DNA from: a virus
Virus genome (UHGV): UHGV-0027971
Strand: one strand, 5' to 3'
Length of the DNA stretch: 43,269 nucleotides
Numbering within the stretch: the stretch's first letter is position 1; each line of letters opens with the position of its first letter. The notes beneath the pieces were generated by a model. That model did not search any database, was not told where the DNA came from, and saw nothing but the letters and a program-made list of their open reading frames with translations. This document shows, one piece after another, positions 1-43,269 of this stretch. Both the position numbers and the translations under genes were made by a program.

Positions 1-74
1 TGATAGAAACAGAAGCCACTGGAGCACCTCAAAAACACCATCATACACTAAATCAGTAAGTTGGCAGCATCACC
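1..74 (-). mobile_element. IS1 insertion sequence, terminal fragment (inverted-repeat end at 52..74; element continues beyond the window start)
   Basis: Bases 1..74 are the reverse complement of the IS1 left end as I recall it (GGTGATGCTGCCAACTTACTGATTTAGTGTATGATGG...). Identification is from memory, not a search. Confidence 0.75.
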
Positions 75-334
75 TAAGCGTTATGCAAAATGGATCACAG
101 TGATACGACCTCACCAGTAAATCACTGAAGCCGATCTGTAATGACATAGAACGAATTGGTTTTATGGTTATGCAATGGCTCATCCCCTTACTTGTCCCTG
201 ACCATAAAAAGCATTCGCTTTCCTGAAAGCAAGTCTAAGCCAAGGGGCGTTTACAGTTGTCTTATCTTGACTCATTAGGTACTGGCTTAATGATTAGAAT
301 CATGTCGGTGGCATTTAGGTCCAAATATGCCCAA

Positions 335-353
335 AATTTTAGCAGCTAAAATT
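335..353. repeat. 19-bp palindrome AATTTTAGC-A-GCTAAAATT (copy 1)
   Basis: Perfect 9-bp inverted half-sites; a second copy lies at 1171..1189 on the other side of the 490..1119 ORF. Confidence 0.5.
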
Positions 354-489
354 CGTCTTCTCATGTAGGGTCAAGAAGCTTATGACTTAACCTATTAATT
401 ATGTGAATTACCTTGTGAGTAATACTCGTAGGATGGAATCTTCCAAAACTCTGACAATTCACTCTGAATGCATGGTAACAAAGAACAGT

Positions 490-1119
490 TTAAACCATGG
501 TCTGTTCAGCGTTAAATTTCTCAAGATAGACTTCCATTTCGCGAGTCCACCTAGGGGTAGGTACCGAGGTGATCATTAGCCAAGGAAACCACCATACAAG
601 CATGAAGAGTAACATAAGCGGTGCGATCATTTCGGCCGAAGAATGAGAAACTATATACATAATGAATAATATTAGTAGAACTGTGTTTACAATCTGACCT
701 ACCAGAAAAAGACGCCAGCGAAAACAATGCCATTTCCTGTTGAACACAATCCGTCCATCCCGTTCTTCGAGCCAGTTACGCCACGGCTTGAGATAACCAG
801 CCCGCAACCCATAACGATCACACATTATTACAGCCAAATCCTGCAGCCGATAATTATACAAGCCTGTGAGCCGATAAAGGCTGCGCTGACGAAGCTCACG
901 CTTTGCCAGACGGACCGCATTTTTATTCGAATATGGCTGTGTCAGCATTTGCTCTAGCCGGCGCTTCCTAAGATTGAGTAGTCCACGAAATACACTTCCA
1001 GATTCAGCATTAATTACTCTGTGACGAACTACACCGAGTGCAATATAGATACACAGCAATAGCCAGCCGGTCTTAGGGTATTGATTCATCCATTGTATAA
1101 TTACAGACAACTCAGGCAC
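490..1119 (-). CDS. hypothetical membrane protein (209 aa, hydrophobic segments near N-terminus and at residues ~140-185)
   Basis: Long ORF in the track; no family recognised by eye. Confidence 0.45.
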   Translation of the reverse strand: MPELSVIIQWMNQYPKTGWLLLCIYIALGVVRHRVINAESGSVFRGLLNLRKRRLEQMLTQPYSNKNAVRLAKRELRQRSLYRLTGLYNYRLQDLAVIMCDRYGLRAGYLKPWRNWLEERDGRIVFNRKWHCFRWRLFLVGQIVNTVLLILFIMYIVSHSSAEMIAPLMLLFMLVWWFPWLMITSVPTPRWTREMEVYLEKFNAEQTMV

Positions 1120-1170
1120 TTTTATTTTTCCTTTTTATGCAATCCAGATAAAACCAGTAAAGATTCAGTA

Positions 1171-1189
1171 AATTTTAGCGGCTAAAATT
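1171..1189. repeat. 19-bp palindrome AATTTTAGC-G-GCTAAAATT (copy 2)
   Basis: Same palindrome as 335..353 with similar flank (..CGTCTTCTC / ..GCTCTCCTAC); lies between the integrase stop and the 209-aa gene start. Confidence 0.5.
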
Positions 1190-1242
1190 GCTCTCCTACC
1201 GTAGAAAAAAGAAGCACAACCACTTAACTTACTGATTATTAA

Positions 1243-2433
1243 CTACTTACTAGTCCATTCATCAATCATATTCGCCCAATCTTGTAGCATCTCAGCCCTC
1301 TGCTCACGATATTCTGCCTTGTTATAAACAGCTCGTACCCCTTTTTGTTCATGGGCAAGGCTCTTCTCAATCCAGTCAGTATTGTACCCGGCCTCATGTA
1401 GCAAGGTGCTGGCTGTACGCCGTAAGTCATGGGGACCAAACTTAGGCAACAACTCCCCTTCTTTCTGAGCCAGGCGATACGTCAGTGTCAAAACCCGGTT
1501 TAAAGTAGCGCTACTCATTGGCGCATCGGAATCGTACCGCGAAGGAAGGATAAAATCAGAGCTACCGGCAAAGGTTTTGAGAGCAATCATAATATCCATT
1601 GCCTGTCTGGAAAGAAAAACCAAATGTGGATTACGTCGTTTCATCCTTTCCTTTGGTATCGTCCATAATGCCTCACTAAAATTGATCTCGTTCCAGGTTG
1701 CGTTAGTAAGCTCACTTTTACGTACCATCGTTAACAGCAAAAGTTTAACCGCTGCTCTGATTGATGGCGTCGTTCCTACCCGTTCCATGTACCGATACAT
1801 CAGACCAATTTCAACTGGCGTCAATGCCCTGTCTCGAGGCTCAAATTTCGCTATGCTTGCAGGCCGTACCAGATCAGCAGGATTCTCCACCTTCTGACCG
1901 CGCTCAATAGCCCAGCGATAGACTTGCAATACAATCTCTCTAGCGTGTACAGCTGTCGCTGGTGCCCCTCTCTCGACAATGTTATCGGTTAATGCGCGTA
2001 AGTCCTCATGTGTAATCTCACTAAGTTTCTGCTGGGCAAATTTTGACTTCAACTCCCTTTGATATACCGAACGCCGCATATCACGCGTCGATTCAGCCAT
2101 TTGATAACCGCGTAACCATTTCTCAGTCCACGCACCAAAAGTCTCCGCATCTTTAATACGCGCTTTATCTCTGGCTTTTTCCCTCGCAGGCGATATTCCA
2201 CTGGCAACCATTTTTTTGGCTTCATTGAGCCGTTCACGCGCTTCTGCAAGCGTGATCCCTCCAACACCATAGCGGCCAAAAGTAACAGTCTCCTGTCTTC
2301 CGTTTATTGAATAGTTATAACGAAATGAAATAGTTCCAGCCGGAGTGACCGCAACATACAGACCATCACGGTCATTAACTTTATAGAGTTTCTCCTTCGG
2401 CTTAAGGTGATGCAGCCTGGTGTCAGTCAACAT
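1243..2433 (-). CDS. int: tyrosine recombinase / integrase, P4-type (element 1)
   Basis: 396 aa; N-terminal MLTDTRLHHLKP..LYKVNDRDGLYV and C-terminal HDLRRTASTLLHEAGY..WIEKSLAH..GVRAVYNKAEY motifs typical of P4/CP4-57-like integrases; paralog of 41752..43002. Confidence 0.9.
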   Translation of the reverse strand: MLTDTRLHHLKPKEKLYKVNDRDGLYVAVTPAGTISFRYNYSINGRQETVTFGRYGVGGITLAEARERLNEAKKMVASGISPAREKARDKARIKDAETFGAWTEKWLRGYQMAESTRDMRRSVYQRELKSKFAQQKLSEITHEDLRALTDNIVERGAPATAVHAREIVLQVYRWAIERGQKVENPADLVRPASIAKFEPRDRALTPVEIGLMYRYMERVGTTPSIRAAVKLLLLTMVRKSELTNATWNEINFSEALWTIPKERMKRRNPHLVFLSRQAMDIMIALKTFAGSSDFILPSRYDSDAPMSSATLNRVLTLTYRLAQKEGELLPKFGPHDLRRTASTLLHEAGYNTDWIEKSLAHEQKGVRAVYNKAEYREQRAEMLQDWANMIDEWTSK

Positions 2434-2659
2434 GGTTTATTGTTTTCCTTTATCAAAAATACCATGTTGTAAAAAATTCAGAAAAGTTGTTTAACTATCT
2501 GTTTTTAATTGAGTTATAAAAAAACAAATACCATAACTCAACCGAAATTTATCACATGGTACTTTTTCAAACCTGAATTCGAAATCAGAGAGTACCATCA
2601 AAAATTCCATTGAAAAAACCGTGCTTCCCGTTGCTAACAGCTGCCAGAAAGTGCCAGAC

Positions 2660-2692
2660 ACAAAAACAAAAAAGCCCGCAGTTACGCGGGCT
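2660..2692 (-). terminator. rho-independent terminator (minus-strand sense) in the att arm of element 1
   Basis: Hairpin AGCCCGC-agttac-GCGGGCT with A-run 2660..2673 on plus = U-run on minus. Confidence 0.55.
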
Positions 2693-2738
2693 TAGAGGTA
2701 CTTTACTGCTTTTACGTGCAGGCTGTTGCCAGACGTTA

Positions 2739-2755
2739 AATCATTCCCACTCAAT
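2739..2755. repeat. att core direct repeat, left copy (AATCATTCCCACTCAAT)
   Basis: Identical 17-mer at 43193..43209, where it overlaps the last codons and stop of guaA; an integrase gene lies about 200-300 bp to the left of each copy. Confidence 0.75.
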
Positions 2756-2865
2756 TATTTACGGACACCATAACTAATTGAGTGATAACATTTTTCCAAA
2801 GATGAATTTTTCTCGTACCGTTTTATATACCGTCACCGGAAATCAGTACCATGAAAAATGCCATG

Positions 2866-3348
2866 CTATCTGGTCAGGGTGTCGTATTGTTTTTCGCAGA
2901 CTCTTCCGGCTTCGGCTGCCCGGTCAGCATACTCTGCCAGTTGTCTGTTTCTCTCGAGAGATTTGCTGAGCACGTCGGCAAGCAAAACTCCGGTGTCTGC
3001 GGCTGACGTCCCAGCGCCGACAATGGCGTTATACTGCCTGAGCTGCTCACGGATGGCAAAGAGTTGTTGCTGCAACCGGCCAGCGCGAGCGGCAGCATCA
3101 AGAGCATCATTGCGCGCCTGGTCGATCCTCTGCTGCGCTTCACGTTCATTGATCGATTTCTCCTGTTCGTAGTGCTGACGAACTATCTCATCTTCAGCTT
3201 TGCGGTCTTCCTTCGCCTGCGCATACCCGGCATCGTACTGACGACTGCCGTGTGCATTCCAGGCTACAACTCCTGATATGACCAGAACAGCAAGCATCGC
3301 CATGATAACCAACTGTTTCCAGTATGCTTTTGCGAATGCCCAGATCAT
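2866..3348 (-). CDS. i-spanin (Rz-like lysis protein)
   Basis: 160 aa, N-terminal hydrophobic anchor then a charged coiled-coil-like region; last gene of the lysis cassette; contains an embedded lipoprotein ORF. Confidence 0.75.
2874..3149 (-). CDS. o-spanin lipoprotein (Rz1-like), embedded in the +1 frame of the Rz-like gene
   Basis: Signal peptide with lipobox LALAGC, proline-rich mature part; entirely inside 2866..3348 in another frame. Confidence 0.7.
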   Translation of the reverse strand: MNVKRSRGSTRRAMMLLMLPLALAGCSNNSLPSVSSSGSITPLSALGRQPQTPEFCLPTCSANLSRETDNWQSMLTGQPKPEESAKNNTTP

Positions 3349-3974
3349 ACCGCCAGCACCTTACTGGCAGTTATGTATCGCGCGCGCCGGTCATCAATGC
3401 CGTTCCGGCCACCATTGATAAGCAGAGTTACACGTGCAATATCTCCGGTATACTTCATGCAGCCTTTGCTGGAGAAGAACCACGCCGCGCTACGAGCCGC
3501 GTATTCGTCCTGCGCCAGCAGTTCAGGACTCTCCAGCAGGTCAACCTTAAGACCGTTTCCACAGTCACGATAGTTATTCAAACCGGTAATCTGGATAAGT
3601 CCGCGCCCACGGTAGTTCCAGCCGTCACCAGGGGCATTGTTCCCCATGCGTTTGCTGTATACCAGATTGGCGATCGCTCGCTGCCTCTCCAGTGGCAACG
3701 ATGGTTCACCCTGCCGGCGCCCGAGGGAATTAGCCTGGCCCTGCGTCAGTCGTCCGGCACGGACGAAACCAGCCAGCCCAGCAACGCTGTAATTGAAGCT
3801 CTCAACGAGCTGGGTAAAGCCAGTGCTTTCATGCCCGGCCTGGGCAATAAACATAGCCTGATCCAGCGGCTTGATAATGCCAAACTCTTTCATGGCAGCC
3901 ACAATGTGCGGATGCCAGCGTGTTGCCAGCGCCAGGCTAACGCCGGCAGCTTTCTGAAACTCGTTAATGTCCAT
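3345..3974 (-). CDS. endolysin (lysozyme-like, probably glycoside hydrolase family 19 type)
   Basis: 209 aa; motifs [25 protein letters not shown] resemble GH19-type phage endolysins; sits between holin-like genes and Rz. Confidence 0.8.
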
Positions 3975-4269
3975 GTTGCGACCTCGATATCTTGAAGATT
4001 TGCACGACGTTGCCGCGCGTCTTCAGCACCGCGGCGAACATCACAGCATTGATAACGACCTCAGAAAGATCTGCGGTCATGGGGAAGTGGTACAGGTATG
4101 AGTACGCGGTGCGAAGCGGGATACTGGCCGCCGCCACGATGAGGAAATAGGCTATCCACCCACCCCAGCGGCGGTGGCGCGATCCGTTGCGCTGGAAGAA
4201 CATCACCCTCAGCGCTATCCCGCCGCAGATGAGGGCATTAGCGATAAGCAGCAGATCATGGCCTGTCAT
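3964..4269 (-). CDS. holin/antiholin-like small membrane protein
   Basis: 101 aa with about three hydrophobic helices, directly upstream of the endolysin. Confidence 0.5.
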
Positions 4270-4948: not shown

Positions 4949-7245
4949 GACGTCACCGTAAAATTAAATAATAATGAATCGGTAGAAGAAGCCAGCCATA
5001 AAGACTGAGTTTTATTTTTCGGAGCTTCAATCAAATCCATTGATGCTTTTGCAGAGCAATAAAACCCGTAATCTCCTGTTGCAGCTATTGAAATCTCAAC
5101 CAGATGATTAGCATTTATTGCAGCTGTGATAGAGGGAGTTGACGTAGTTTCAGCATCCCAGTTATCCCATTCGTGAGATAGTATCCTTGCGCCGGTAGCC
5201 CAGTTGTCATTGACAGTACCATTTGAGATCAGCACCACAGCCCTGATGCGAGAATATTTTTGCGTCGTCCTTGTTCTGAGGAACGCTGTAACATTAACAA
5301 TTGCAGCGTTAAATCCACCGACAACACCGAAAGTCCAGAGAGTTTTACTACTGTTGACCCCGGCACCGGATGCGACAGGAGGAAAATCTGTGGTTATTTT
5401 CCCAATACTCCCTGTATTAATGATTCTTGGGGCATATTTAAATTCGGCAGGGACCACGGTATTAGCCCCAAGAACAAATGCCATGGATGATGCCCTTAAT
5501 TTGTTGCCTGTTACGTTAGGATGGGTATCATCATTCATCCACCCTTTTGATACGGCGTTTTCATAAGTACCTAGGGTCTGCCTGTCATCAAAATAGTAAT
5601 AGCCATTATTCAAAGCAAAATTTCTCCTGGCTATCCTGTAACTCTCTACGGCACTAGCATATTTGGGGTTAGTCGTCTTACTTGTTTCCCCTGGTTCAAC
5701 TATTAGCGCAACCGACGATGATGGTTTTATCATATTGGTATATGTTATCAAATCCGCCTTAAACTGCTCAACAGTTCTCCCTTGCCCCATATCATTAGTT
5801 CCCGCATTAATAACAACTAAAGCAGGGTTTAATGCAGCTTTCCATTTCGAAATAAAAACAGAGTCCTGCGATACAAACTCATCAAGTCGCCTGCCGCCAC
5901 GTGCAATTGTTGCTGTTCTTATACCTCTTGGGTTTGGTGTATATATAAAATCAAGTGCAAAAATAACTACATTACCGGTAATTTCTGAAAGTGTGATGCT
6001 GGAGGCATTTGTCGCATCTCTGAATACAGAAATAACGCCAAGATCCAAATCGGCGTTACTGTTAACGCTAGTCACAGTGCCGCCTGCCGTTATATTAAAG
6101 CTACCACCACCTGATTGTTTTAAATAATACAAATTACACTTATCCCATGGCAATTTGGGATCAGCGCCAGCTTGCTCAGTACCACTTGCTGAAGGCCATT
6201 GAATACCTCTACCAGCAGGAGCATATTTTGCTGGGGTAGCATTCATCGGTAAATCTCGTAAACTGGTGAATGTTCCTAAAGCATAAAATGCCTGATCACC
6301 TTCTATCTGAAAGGCCGCTTGATCAAAAGCATAAAATCCAGGTCCACCATAATCAAATGATGAATGCAGAAGTATTTTCAGGTATCTAACATAATTGGTG
6401 TTACCTGCCCCCTCATTAAGTGAATCAATGCCAAACTGAATCAGGCCTCCGGTTTGTAAAAGATAAGCAAGTGGATTATTTTTAACATATGAATTTACAT
6501 CCATTCGATCTAGTGTTGCTCCTACCGTTGTTTCATGAAACCCTGACAAGTTAGCGCCTGTAGGTTTTGCAAGTTGGATCAACACATCAGAAGCGCTACC
6601 AGGAATGGCAGGGACAGGATTTGGTTCACCATAATCGTTGAAAGTGAAAACTGTATTTTTCCTTACGTCCACAGAAGGAAGAAAAGATATTTCATCTTCA
6701 GGTACTCTCACCGTCCTTTTAAACAAATTCTCAGAATGCTGATTATTACTTGAATCTCCGGCATCTACATAATTCTTTGTTGCAGCATCCTGTGCCTGTG
6801 ACGGGTCACGCAGATTACGAATGCGGTTGTTGAGTGCGTCGTAATAGCTCGCGATGAACGACGGCTTACGCAGCGCCAGGCGGAGAAAGCTGAAGCACTG
6901 CTGGATAAGCATGGTCAGCTTGTCGAATGCATCCTCATGCACCTCTGCGAAAAATTTCCCCTGGTTACGCAGATCAGTCTCCTGGGTAACAGGCAAGTCA
7001 CGTGAGATAGAGATTTGCCATCCGTTGGCCAGAGGTGACATCAACACAACGCTCCCACCTGAATAGCTTCCCGCCCCGGTAACTGAGTAATCGGTATCTA
7101 AAGTCAGAACTGTAATATTTTCGTTAAGGTCAGCGACCTGGACAGTGAGATCTGACTTCTTGAAGATGCGAAACGTGTACGGGAAAGATGTGGTAACGCC
7201 GTTCCCTGTGTAGTCGTTATGGTCGACTTCGGTTGAGACCGTCAT
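4945..7245 (-). CDS. tailspike/tail fibre protein with SGNH (GDSL-like) hydrolase domain
   Basis: 766 aa; N-terminus MTVSTEVDHNDYTGNGVTTSFPYTFRIFKKSDLTV typical of podovirus tail-fibre head-binding domains; C-terminal part has SGNH-like blocks (VVINAGTNDMG, NDDTHPN). Confidence 0.8.
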   Translation of the reverse strand: MTVSTEVDHNDYTGNGVTTSFPYTFRIFKKSDLTVQVADLNENITVLTLDTDYSVTGAGSYSGGSVVLMSPLANGWQISISRDLPVTQETDLRNQGKFFAEVHEDAFDKLTMLIQQCFSFLRLALRKPSFIASYYDALNNRIRNLRDPSQAQDAATKNYVDAGDSSNNQHSENLFKRTVRVPEDEISFLPSVDVRKNTVFTFNDYGEPNPVPAIPGSASDVLIQLAKPTGANLSGFHETTVGATLDRMDVNSYVKNNPLAYLLQTGGLIQFGIDSLNEGAGNTNYVRYLKILLHSSFDYGGPGFYAFDQAAFQIEGDQAFYALGTFTSLRDLPMNATPAKYAPAGRGIQWPSASGTEQAGADPKLPWDKCNLYYLKQSGGGSFNITAGGTVTSVNSNADLDLGVISVFRDATNASSITLSEITGNVVIFALDFIYTPNPRGIRTATIARGGRRLDEFVSQDSVFISKWKAALNPALVVINAGTNDMGQGRTVEQFKADLITYTNMIKPSSSVALIVEPGETSKTTNPKYASAVESYRIARRNFALNNGYYYFDDRQTLGTYENAVSKGWMNDDTHPNVTGNKLRASSMAFVLGANTVVPAEFKYAPRIINTGSIGKITTDFPPVASGAGVNSSKTLWTFGVVGGFNAAIVNVTAFLRTRTTQKYSRIRAVVLISNGTVNDNWATGARILSHEWDNWDAETTSTPSITAAINANHLVEISIAATGDYGFYCSAKASMDLIEAPKNKTQSLWLASSTDSLLFNFTVTS

Positions 7246-28835: not shown

Positions 28836-28912
28836 GTGGCATTAGCTCAGTTGGACAGAGCAACCGCCTTCTAAGCGGTTGGTCGCAGGTTCGAATCCTG
28901 CATGCCACGCCA
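28836..28912 (+). tRNA. tRNA-Arg (anticodon UCU)
   Basis: Cloverleaf by eye: acceptor GTGGCAT/ATGCCAC, D-arm TAGCTCAGTTGGACAGAGCA, anticodon stem ACCGC/GCGGT with loop CTTCTAA, T-arm GCAGGTTCGAATCCTGC, discriminator G and CCA. Confidence 0.85.
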
Positions 28913-38230: not shown

Positions 38231-39144
38231 GCAACGAAATTGCAATCACCAATGATGTGTTGGCTATTCGGGGAATCGATGAAGTTACATGGAGCGCTCT
38301 GAAAAACAGTATTTACCCTGGGGCAAAAGATGAATCGGTAATGATGGCAGTCGATTACTGCCGGGCGCGTCAACTCGATCCTCTTCTTAAGCCGGTACAC
38401 CTGGTACCAATGAGTGTTAAAGACTCGAAGAGTGGAAAGAATGAATGGCGCGACGTGGTCATGCCTGGCATTGGACTTTATCGCATTCAGGCCTACCGTT
38501 CCGGCGATTACGCAGGCGCTAATGAACCTGAGTTCGGTCCAGATGTAACACAAACGCTTTCAGGCGTGGAGGTTACCTTCCCTCAGTGGTGTAAGTACAC
38601 CGTCAGCAAGCGAATGGCAAGCGGGGAAATCGTAGAGTTTAGCGCCAAAGAATACTGGATTGAGAACTATGCAACTGGGGGGCGTGACACATCGGCACCA
38701 AATGCCATGTGGAAAAAGCGCCCTTATGCGCAGTTGGCAAAATGCGCAGAGGCACAGGCATTACGTAAAGCATGGCCGGAGATTGGTCAACAAGCCACAG
38801 CTGAGGAAATGGAAGGTAAATATATCGACTCACCTGACATTATTGAACGTGACGTAACTCCAAGAAGCCAGGCAAAGCACGGCACAGCATCCAGCATGAA
38901 CAGTCTGATCAACGCTAAAACAGTGAAAAAGCCTGATGAGCAAACGCGTAAAGCGGATAGCCGTGATCCAGAAGAAATGCTGATGGCCTTTACCAGCGCA
39001 GCGATGAATTACAGCACTGTCTCCGAACTGGATAAGGCTTACAAATACATTGCACAAAAACTTTCAGATGATGACGAACTGCTGGCAAAAGCCACCGACG
39101 TTTACAGCGTTCGTCGGGAAGAATTAAACGAAACATCTATGTAA
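38227..39144 (+). CDS. RecT/Bet-family single-strand annealing protein
   Basis: Motif KRPYAQLAKCAEAQALRKAWPE; start ATG 38227 overlaps the exonuclease stop (ATGA). Confidence 0.8.
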   Translation: MSNEIAITNDVLAIRGIDEVTWSALKNSIYPGAKDESVMMAVDYCRARQLDPLLKPVHLVPMSVKDSKSGKNEWRDVVMPGIGLYRIQAYRSGDYAGANEPEFGPDVTQTLSGVEVTFPQWCKYTVSKRMASGEIVEFSAKEYWIENYATGGRDTSAPNAMWKKRPYAQLAKCAEAQALRKAWPEIGQQATAEEMEGKYIDSPDIIERDVTPRSQAKHGTASSMNSLINAKTVKKPDEQTRKADSRDPEEMLMAFTSAAMNYSTVSELDKAYKYIAQKLSDDDELLAKATDVYSVRREELNETSM

Positions 39145-41751: not shown

Positions 41752-43002
41752 TTATTCCCCCGCCATCCACTTCTCAAACTTCGACGGGGAGAACGGAATC
41801 AGATCCGTATGCTCCCCGTTAATCCAGGAATCAATCATATCGGACCACTGCTGCAACATGTAGGCGCGCTGTCTGGCGTATTCCGCTTTGTTATATACGG
41901 CGCGCACACCTTTCTGCTCATGTGCCAGAGCCTTTTCAATCCAGTCTGAAGGATAACCAGCCTCATGCAACAACGTACTGGCTGTACGGCGCATATCGTG
42001 TACGGTGAAGTCCTGAATATGCTCACCATCTTCATTTATTATTTTCACCGTTCTGTCGATCAGAGAGTTCAGCGCGGCATTAGATAATGGCTTCCGGAAA
42101 TTGTAACGACCAGGAACCAGATATTCACTTCCACCAGCGCACATCTGCAACCCGACCAATATATCCTGTGCCTGTTTAGGCAGGTAAATAACGTGCGCCC
42201 GGCTTCCCTTCATACGGTCTGAAGGAATTGTCCATGTCCATTTTTTAAAATCTATTTCATCCCACGTTGCATTGGTGAATTCGCCTTTACGAACCATAGT
42301 GATAAGCACCAGCTTTAAAGCCATTTTCATAGTGCCCATAGCGCCAATGGCATCCAACGTGCGGAAGAACAGGCCAATTTCTTCTGGTGTCAGTGTTCGC
42401 TCTCGTGGTTTAAATATGGCGATAGACGAAGGTTTAATGTCAGCCGCAGGATTAAACAAACCATGACCACGGTCATTGGCGTGACGGTATACGCTGCTGA
42501 TGATCTCCCGGGCCTGCACTGCTGTTGCCCGGCCACCGCGTTCGACAATCCGGTCACACAAATCACGAACCATCGATGTGGTAATTTCAGCCATCATTTT
42601 GTTGCCAAGAACCGGAAGTATGTCACGGTCGATCACCGCCTGCTTCATTGCGCGGGTACTTTCAGCCAGGATGACGTGTTTCATATAACTGTCGGTATGT
42701 ACCGCAAATGTCTCGGCACCACGAATCTTTTTGATACCGTCACGTTTAGCCGCAGCCGGCGACTGGCCTGCTTTAAGCAGCTTCTTTGCAGCAATCAGTT
42801 CTTCCCGCGCTTCTGCCAGGCTGATACCGTCACGCCCATACTGCCCGATTACCAGTGTTTCGCGGCGACCGTTGATACGGTAGTCATAGCGAAACGAGAC
42901 CGTGCCTGACGTAAGCACAGCTACATACAGCCCGTCACGATCGGAGACCTTGTACAGTTTGTCCTGCGGCTTGAGGTTTTTTAATTTTGTATCGGTAAGC
43001 AC
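41752..43002 (-). CDS. int: tyrosine recombinase / integrase, P4-type (prophage)
   Basis: 416 aa; C-terminal HDMRRTASTLLHEAGY..WIEKALAHEQKGVRAVYNKAEY; adjacent to the right att copy. Confidence 0.9.
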   Translation of the reverse strand: MLTDTKLKNLKPQDKLYKVSDRDGLYVAVLTSGTVSFRYDYRINGRRETLVIGQYGRDGISLAEAREELIAAKKLLKAGQSPAAAKRDGIKKIRGAETFAVHTDSYMKHVILAESTRAMKQAVIDRDILPVLGNKMMAEITTSMVRDLCDRIVERGGRATAVQAREIISSVYRHANDRGHGLFNPAADIKPSSIAIFKPRERTLTPEEIGLFFRTLDAIGAMGTMKMALKLVLITMVRKGEFTNATWDEIDFKKWTWTIPSDRMKGSRAHVIYLPKQAQDILVGLQMCAGGSEYLVPGRYNFRKPLSNAALNSLIDRTVKIINEDGEHIQDFTVHDMRRTASTLLHEAGYPSDWIEKALAHEQKGVRAVYNKAEYARQRAYMLQQWSDMIDSWINGEHTDLIPFSPSKFEKWMAGE

Positions 43003-43146: not shown

Positions 43147-43192
43147 TTAAATTAGTATCTGAATAGGAATGAGTTGCTATGAGTTAGCTGTT

Positions 43193-43209
43193 AATCATTC
43201 CCACTCAAT
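43193..43209. repeat. att core direct repeat, right copy (AATCATTCCCACTCAAT) overlapping the guaA stop
   Basis: Identical to 2739..2755. Confidence 0.75.
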
Positions 43210-43269
43210 GGTAGCTGGCGGCTTGCCGCTGATGTCATACACCACGCGGGAAATACCGTTCACTTCATT
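43195..43269 (-). CDS. guaA: GMP synthase, 3' end (partial; 5' part beyond the window)
   Basis: Reverse-strand translation of 43198..43269 reads NEVNGISRVVYDISGKPPATIEWE then stop, matching the C-terminus of enterobacterial GuaA as I recall it. Confidence 0.8.
   Translation of the reverse strand, partial: NEVNGISRVVYDISGKPPATIEWE

Follow-up and report, generated by a model that had tools for sequence, protein, structure and literature searches.

Candidate orphan KorB operators in an IS1-bounded remnant of a guaA-integrated genomic island beside a prophage

Why should the end of a viral genome carry two copies of the same 19-bp palindrome, one on either side of a single gene? The question is raised by UHGV virus genome UHGV-0027971, a stretch of 43,269 bp that is referred to here, at its full length, as the window. 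The palindrome, AATTTTAGC-N-GCTAAAATT, is present in exactly two copies, designated OB1 (AATTTTAGCAGCTAAAATT, 335-353) and OB2 (AATTTTAGCGGCTAAAATT, 1171-1189), which bracket orf209 (490-1119, minus strand), an open reading frame (ORF) of 209 codons for a predicted membrane protein. This arrangement had been correctly described in an earlier note made from the letters of the sequence, where operators for a regulator or the ends of a small cassette were considered as explanations. Our analysis places the palindromes in the stump of a genomic island that was probably truncated by the insertion sequence IS1 and lies beside a prophage, a remnant and not a functional member of its family. It points to the palindromes being orphan operators of the IncP-1 plasmid protein KorB, predicted to be bound by KorB that an IncP-1 helper plasmid would supply in trans, and we assign this reading a rough probability of 0.7.

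The published KorB operator, OB, has the sequence TTTAGC(c/g)GCTAAA, and its ligand is a ParB-family protein that serves IncP-1 plasmids both as a global repressor and in partition; the published binding work employed the oligonucleotides ATTTTAGCGGCTAAAAG and GGGATATTTTAGCGGCTAAAAGGA. OB2 is a canonical KorB operator: it conforms exactly to the 13-bp core, being of the TTTAGCGGCTAAAA type with TTTAGCGGCTAAA at 1174-1186 (N = G), and it agrees with the oligonucleotide ATTTTAGCGGCTAAAAG at 16/17 positions. OB1 is a palindrome of the KorB-operator type whose core, TTTAGC-A-GCTAAA at 338-350, matches all 12 arm bases and has a central A, not the canonical C/G. Both sites read AATTTTAGCNGCTAAAATT and thereby fit the extended 16-17-bp form of the operator, ATTTTAGCSGCTAAAAT, which has been used in KorB binding and clamp-loading experiments. 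No further copy was found in the window with up to two mismatches, and 100 dinucleotide-preserving shuffles gave 0 matches.

The same sequences are abundant on the plasmids concerned. The IncP-1 plasmid p14EC001a carries 13 exact OB cores, and its OB sites at 38430 and 43968 are identical to the entire OB2 19-mer. At least nine OB cores are present on R751, the IncP-1 beta archetype, including one in the first codons of trbJ, as in the islands described below. The earlier suggestion of operator sites was therefore right in kind, the core being that of the published KorB operator; the regulator would belong to an IncP-1 plasmid and is not encoded by the element.

The element in question is an integrative mobilizable element (IME) of ~13.5 kb at the 3' end of guaA. 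What the window holds of it, positions 75-2755, is the end that bears the integrase gene and is 99.9% identical to one end of the ~13.5-kb guaA island in 35 complete E. coli genomes. Its tyrosine integrase gene (1243-2433, minus strand; Pfam Phage_integrase, Arm-DNA-bind_3 and Phage_int_M) encodes a protein with 86.6% identity to the integrase of GIsul2, and relatives of this integrase adjoin guaA at 80 loci in Alpha-, Beta- and Gammaproteobacteria. We place it in the family known as GIsul2, "IncP island" or PIME1, elements that rely on conjugative plasmids of the IncP-1 group. A preprint of January 2026 names the family PIME, gives a divergent luxR/alpA pair as the hallmark of PIME1, and describes the stretch between int and these regulators as an accessory region. 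The order of genes in the intact island is guaA, tyrosine integrase, orf209, a luxR-like gene on the opposite strand (orf323), alpA, a RepA-type helicase gene and orf253, followed by traJ, trbJ, trbK, trbL, higA and distal cargo. The core set of alpA, the luxR-like gene, repA, traJ/oriT and trbJ-K-L is present in the intact islands L001 and L003 (L numbers designate the loci compared here) and absent from the window. Distal cargo varies among the E. coli islands, with a DEAD/DEAH helicase and a DUF2290 protein in L003 (10890-13718) and an 'ABC-three component system' with an AAA ATPase in L103 (20946-23854), which fits the reported role of the family as a carrier of defence systems.

Operators of the same type recur throughout this family at conserved positions. 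To quantify them, we surveyed 80 loci with a close integrase relative, in which the island side amounts to 594 kb and the chromosomal flank to 758 kb. The island side contained 78 exact OB cores and the chromosomal flank 0, so that the palindrome is not a general host motif; the earlier note had named such a motif as grounds for rejecting its proposal. The flanks of the 78 sites extend the motif to the 17-bp form of the OB oligonucleotide. Among the 36 loci having a luxR-like gene, the centre of an OB lies 26-39 bp beyond its stop codon in 16, and the luxR genes in these loci are only 37-60% identical to the LuxR-like protein of the E. coli island. Further recurrent positions are past the integrase gene, near traJ, in trbJ and, in islands without luxR, upstream of alpA. 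When eight islands from Enterobacterales, Alcaligenes and Aeromonadaceae were aligned, the sole invariant run was TTTTAGC-GCTAAAAT, at a mean column identity of ~55%; OB2 thus stays unchanged through eight diverged islands while its flanks diverge.

The intact island L003 has four OB sites. One of them (6354-6366) lies upstream of traJ and close to the predicted oriT region, near a traJ-II RNA motif (Rfam RF01760, 6638-6736) that scored 84.6 bits against a gathering score of 40. An OB core within the first ~40 bp of trbJ is shared by L003 (7241), L004 (8468), GIsul2 (L005, 21148) and R751 (L102, 25579). Identity between L003 and p14EC001a is 60% for traJ, 87% for trbJ, 58% for trbL and 54% for higA. 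Searches with Pfam and tblastn found no homologue of KorB, IncC or KorA in the full 13.5-kb island or in ~100 related loci, and no hidden trbA gene was found when the islands were inspected for one. The operators are orphans in this sense, and it is from close relatives that we infer OB sites also for the elements tested in the preprint (strains RHB23-C07 and NCTC12028).

Several observations weigh against the assignment to KorB. The central base of OB1 belongs to the A/T class, as compared with C/G in 22/22 plasmid OB cores examined. The islands have C/G in 71/78 and A/T in 7/78 of their cores, and A/T-centred sites are also found in L007-L011, L014, L018 and the Vibrio locus L006, that is, in the lineage of the window and at least three others. 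For repression by KorB, an OB precedes its promoter by 4-10 bp or by 45 to >1000 bp, a rule too permissive in its distal class for position to decide, and a consensus scan revealed no convincing sigma-70 promoter beside either site. Candidate promoters next to or within OB were weak 9/12 matches only, at background frequency, and the idea of a promoter formed by the TAAAAT inside OB and reading antisense into luxR was abandoned, there being no conserved -35 element in 16 loci. KorA operators (TTTAGCTAAA) number 0 in the window and in the E. coli island and are sporadic elsewhere. Some members of the family have the trbJ site only (GIsul2) or no OB at all. KorB is a repressor, yet IncP plasmids induce the excision of PIME elements, so that a simple switch-on model is not sufficient without a further step. 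In the window, where the island is truncated, the functions of the island as a whole are gone, and the binding of KorB and its effects on expression, which go beyond identity of sequence, are predicted. In Vibrio alginolyticus pL29 (L006, 17350-17378), an A/T-centred OB is set inside a perfect 29-bp palindrome, GGCAAAATTTTAGCTGCTAAAATTTTGCC, between convergent genes.

Why there are two sites around orf209 is best approached through the DNA on either side of them. OB2 lies 54 bp beyond the integrase stop codon and its centre lies 61 bp upstream of the orf209 start, which is supported by an ATG at the same position in the relatives. The spacer between the integrase stop and OB2 (1190-1242, minus strand) is the first copy of a duplicated module, and a diverged second copy of ~70 bp (354-425, minus strand) separates the orf209 stop from OB1. 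The direct repeat 323-379/1159-1215 extends over 57 nt without gaps at 72% identity; with gaps allowed it covers ~70 bp, starting at the integrase stop codon. In Blast comparisons the second spacer copy matched the spacer between int and OB of L012. The DNA on the right of OB2 resembles the region upstream of orf209 in islands of Lonsdalea and Pantoea, which have the order int-OB-orf209-luxR with a single OB. The DNA on the right of OB1 resembles segment X of the Erwinia island L013, which has the order int-OB-X-OB-luxR without orf209. Segment X is represented in the window by a non-coding remnant (75-334) that is collinear with the intact islands L001 and L003, where it fills the space from OB1 to the luxR-like gene, which it meets at the 3' end; its identity with the int-OB-X segment of L013 is 79%. 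No conserved ORF was found in window positions 75-334, and the same bases gave no Rfam match. On this evidence the arrangement int-[spacer+OB]-orf209-[spacer'+OB]-X reads as two island variants that would have been joined with the breakpoint at OB.

orf209 is a cargo gene in the known hotspot between int and luxR. An AlphaFold2 model of its product (predicted local distance difference test score, pLDDT, 76) combines a basic helical domain with three long hydrophobic helices; no family match was obtained in Pfam, NCBIfam, PADLOC or PHROGs, and no PDB fold matched the model with E below 1. Only 28 homologues were found, and all those with a source name are from Enterobacterales. On plasmids, homologues with 53% identity (L090, 5713-7027; L091, 3647-4955) stand tail-to-tail with a DUF6710 gene and adjoin genes for colicin M and a pore-forming colicin. 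This colicin/DUF6710 neighbourhood could serve as a lead to the function of orf209; the colicin or Rep3 plasmid contexts of the homologues beside the DUF6710 gene gave no clear functional lead. With regard to the operators, orf209 is accompanied by a single OB in L012 and L092-L094; in the Lonsdalea and Pantoea islands the one site present is that on the int side. The 62%-identical island homologue in L087 has no OB nearby, and the plasmid homologues in L088, L090 and L091 are likewise without OB. Since orf209 homologues on plasmids and in one island lack the operator, the repeats are better assigned to the backbone of the island than to orf209.

These comparisons bear directly on the other half of the earlier proposal, ends of a small cassette, which may be taken to mean that the pair bounds a mobile or recombinational unit with orf209 inside it and OB as the crossover site. 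What survives of it is the breakpoint: L013 has int-OB-X without orf209 and the window int-OB-orf209-OB-X, the switch point being at OB, and the OB sites are flanked by the 57-70-bp direct repeat. The notion of cassette ends holds in part only, as orf209 is found without the OB pair, with a single site, with none nearby or, on plasmids, with none, and the repeats therefore more probably mark a junction of backbone modules. Their 72% identity is also too low for a recent duplicative insertion, and we know of no OB-specific recombinase, so that a cassette of this kind appears quite unlikely. A role as intrinsic terminators of int and orf209, suggested by the fact that each palindrome closely follows a stop codon (that of int for OB2, that of orf209 for OB1), had already been disfavoured in the earlier note on account of AT-rich composition. 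Our calculations leave this explanation with next to no credibility: the stems are nearly pure A-T with a 3-nt loop, the hairpins are weak (-2.9 to -5.9 kcal/mol; z -0.46 to 0.01) and no better than those of shuffled sequences, and a terminator scan picked up neither site.

Two further explanations concern the origin and the ligand of the sites. The palindromes might be functionless relics that were inherited with IncP-derived DNA when the family arose, as could be argued from the trbJ operator, which is part of a gene of IncP-1 plasmid descent and represents the sole OB of GIsul2, and from the fact that the element in the window is dead anyway. Such an origin does not account well for the int-side and luxR-side operators, which are situated in DNA without IncP homology, nor for an OB that remains invariant while its flanks fall to ~55% mean column identity. 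The fixed spacing between OB and the stop codon of luxR, kept in Alpha-, Beta- and Gammaproteobacteria, and the 78 sites on the island side set against none in the flank, speak in the same direction, and we regard relics as improbable. The palindromes could also be operators of the island's own LuxR-family protein (orf323) or of AlpA instead of plasmid KorB, given that in 16 loci an OB is found 26-39 bp from where the luxR-like gene ends and that both regulators are essential for PIME1 excision. The sequence is, however, the KorB operator base for base, present in 9-13 copies on IncP-1 plasmids that have no such LuxR; a paired OB upstream of alpA persists where no luxR is detectable (L018, L056, L075 and L085); and a position past the stop codon of a gene is an odd place for its own operator. 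Regulation by LuxR or AlpA through these sites thus seems to us a poor prospect. Orphan KorB operators remain the preferred reading of the two palindromes.

How an island without korB might use such sites is suggested by what has been reported for KorB and for other islands. KorB loads at OB as a CTP (cytidine triphosphate)-dependent clamp in the manner of its family, with repression reaching promoters as near as 4 bp and as far as >1 kb; in the IncP-1 partition system it acts as the centromere-binding protein. In SGI1, two parS mimics bind the ParB of the IncC helper plasmid, stabilizing SGI1 and destabilizing or expelling the helper. According to the 2026 preprint, excision and replication of PIME1 are induced by the IncP-1 plasmids pB10 and pKJK5 and not by IncN, IncX or IncL/M plasmids, luxR and alpA are both essential for excision, and a replicating PIME lowers the abundance of pB10. 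The preprint states that the inducer and the mechanism of incompatibility were unidentified, and it contains 0 mentions of KorB or 'operator'. In the library that we searched, no publication joined KorB with 'genomic island' and guaA, or with 'IncP island', and orphan KorB operators at conserved positions in the PIME family appear to be unreported.

In the mechanism that we propose, KorB from a co-resident IncP-1 plasmid would load at the OB sites of the island as a CTP-dependent sliding clamp. The loaded KorB would silence neighbouring promoters (int, orf209, luxR/alpA), and/or the excised and replicating island would borrow the IncC-KorB partition system of the plasmid, titrating KorB off the latter. 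The OB pair around orf209 would represent the module of int-stop spacer (~55 bp) and OB, present twice at a recombination junction between island variants. In the window, the OB sites would be left-overs of a dead element that may still be bound by KorB should an IncP-1 plasmid enter the cell. A more specific version, which is possible but on balance doubtful, holds that plasmid KorB, alone or with KorA/TrbA, acts at the orphan sites and so signals the presence of the plasmid to the island, that the OB copies of the replicating island titrate KorB or hijack IncC-KorB partition and so lower the helper, and that the OB between int and luxR marks a boundary of cargo exchange. Titration or hijacking of this kind would account for the lowered abundance of the helper that the preprint reports.

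The state of the island in the window is explained by IS1. Bases 1-74 (minus strand), in which the earlier note had recognized the IS1 terminus, are the terminal 74 bp of this insertion sequence, with an inverted repeat and the first insA codons: they match thousands of records annotated as IS1-family transposase, a complete IS1 of 768 bp in L096 has one end that matches them at 100%, and base 75 is exactly where likeness to the intact islands sets in. Bases 52-74 (23 bp), when reverse-complemented, give the IS1 terminal inverted repeat. In L100, the same 74 bases adjoin an ORF for the InsA zinc ribbon, which together with the L096 match identifies them as the insA-proximal end and places the body of IS1 to the left of the window. 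The cut in segment X falls 162 bp before the stop codon of the luxR-like gene. This junction was also found in L095, L097 and L098, in assemblies both with and without the prophage, and L097 is 100% identical to window positions 1-2800; related contigs stop within the IS1, and the exact junction occurs in 0/5,426 complete E. coli genomes.

The consequence of the insertion is seen in relatives, outside the window itself. In L096, a separate IS1 of opposite orientation, 32 bp beyond orf209, joins the island directly to yfgH, a deletion of 12.4 kb that has taken the rest of the island. The L095 scaffold, which has the junction of the window, continues after a gap at IS1 with DNA of the yfgG region and not of the island. 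Because both lead from IS1 into yfgH/yfgG DNA, the island is likely to have been truncated by IS1 in the lineage of the window as well, in agreement with the claim that the element was interrupted or truncated by an insertion sequence. A further IS1, the third to have inserted independently, is found in L100 near window position 321. Together, three independent insertions, corresponding to window positions ~75 (L095/L097/L098), ~321 (L100) and ~458 (L096), lie within ~400 bp downstream of orf209, and the AT-rich DNA in which OB1 lies has the look of a hotspot for IS1.

On its other side the remnant borders a prophage of ~40.4 kb (2756-43192), situated between two copies of the 17-bp attachment (att) core AATCATTCCCACTCAAT. 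The first copy (2739-2755) forms the junction of island and prophage, and the second (43193-43209) overlaps the stop codon of guaA, which is on the minus strand; guaA has its genuine end here, in the last bases of the window (43190-43269). The presence of the core at both places means that the prophage integrated in tandem, at the same site as the island remnant. The prophage integrase (41752-43002, minus strand) is 53% identical to that of the island, so phage and IME compete for, or stack at, one attachment site. The prophage lysis genes lie at 2866-4269 (minus strand), and a tRNA-Arg(tct) gene at 28836-28912. Between the start of the island integrase and the att core, a ATCAAAAATACCAT-type motif is repeated at 2452-2465 and 2597-2610, and an inverted repeat is formed by 2455-2473 and 2548-2566; the ATCAAAAATACCAT-type repeats are candidate arm-type binding sites of the integrase.

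For the window itself the practical message is modest; the wider interest lies in the family. IncP-1 plasmids are major broad-host-range carriers of antibiotic resistance, and PIME/GIsul2-type islands, ~1,100 of which have been reported in RefSeq, ride on these plasmids and carry resistance and anti-phage genes. KorB operators in islands that lack korB offer one hypothesis for both the inducer and the incompatibility. If this were true, it would be the second independent case in which an island mimics a centromere or operator of its helper, after SGI1 with IncC plasmids.

Set beside known systems, the locus has a recognizable place in each case. It shares with IS1 the terminal inverted repeat and the start of insA, with a full 768-bp copy of the same end in a related assembly, although only 74 bp fall inside the window. 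With PIME1/GIsul2/'IncP island' elements it shares integration at the guaA 3' end, a related tyrosine integrase and, through its intact relatives, the accessory hotspot between int and luxR; these relatives also have the divergent luxR and alpA followed by repA, traJ, trbJ-K-L and higA, whereas the window keeps only int, orf209 and two OB sites. The KorB operators of the plasmids RK2/RP4 and R751 have in common with the island sites the 13-bp core and the 16-17-bp form, the presence of several copies and the location of one in the first trbJ codons. The island sites differ in residing on a chromosomally integrated element without korB, incC, korA or a KorA operator, and one of the two in the window has a central A/T, unlike those of the plasmids. 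From the parS-like repeats DR1/DR2 of SGI1 they are set apart by the island family, the helper (IncC versus IncP-1) and the motif, and the role suggested here for the island is drawn by analogy, the one experimental hint being the lower pB10 abundance during PIME1 replication. What the two islands share is the arrangement of an IME that has no ParB gene of its own and carries a few copies of the ParB/KorB-family palindrome of its helper, the palindromes lying within short direct repeats near regulatory regions.

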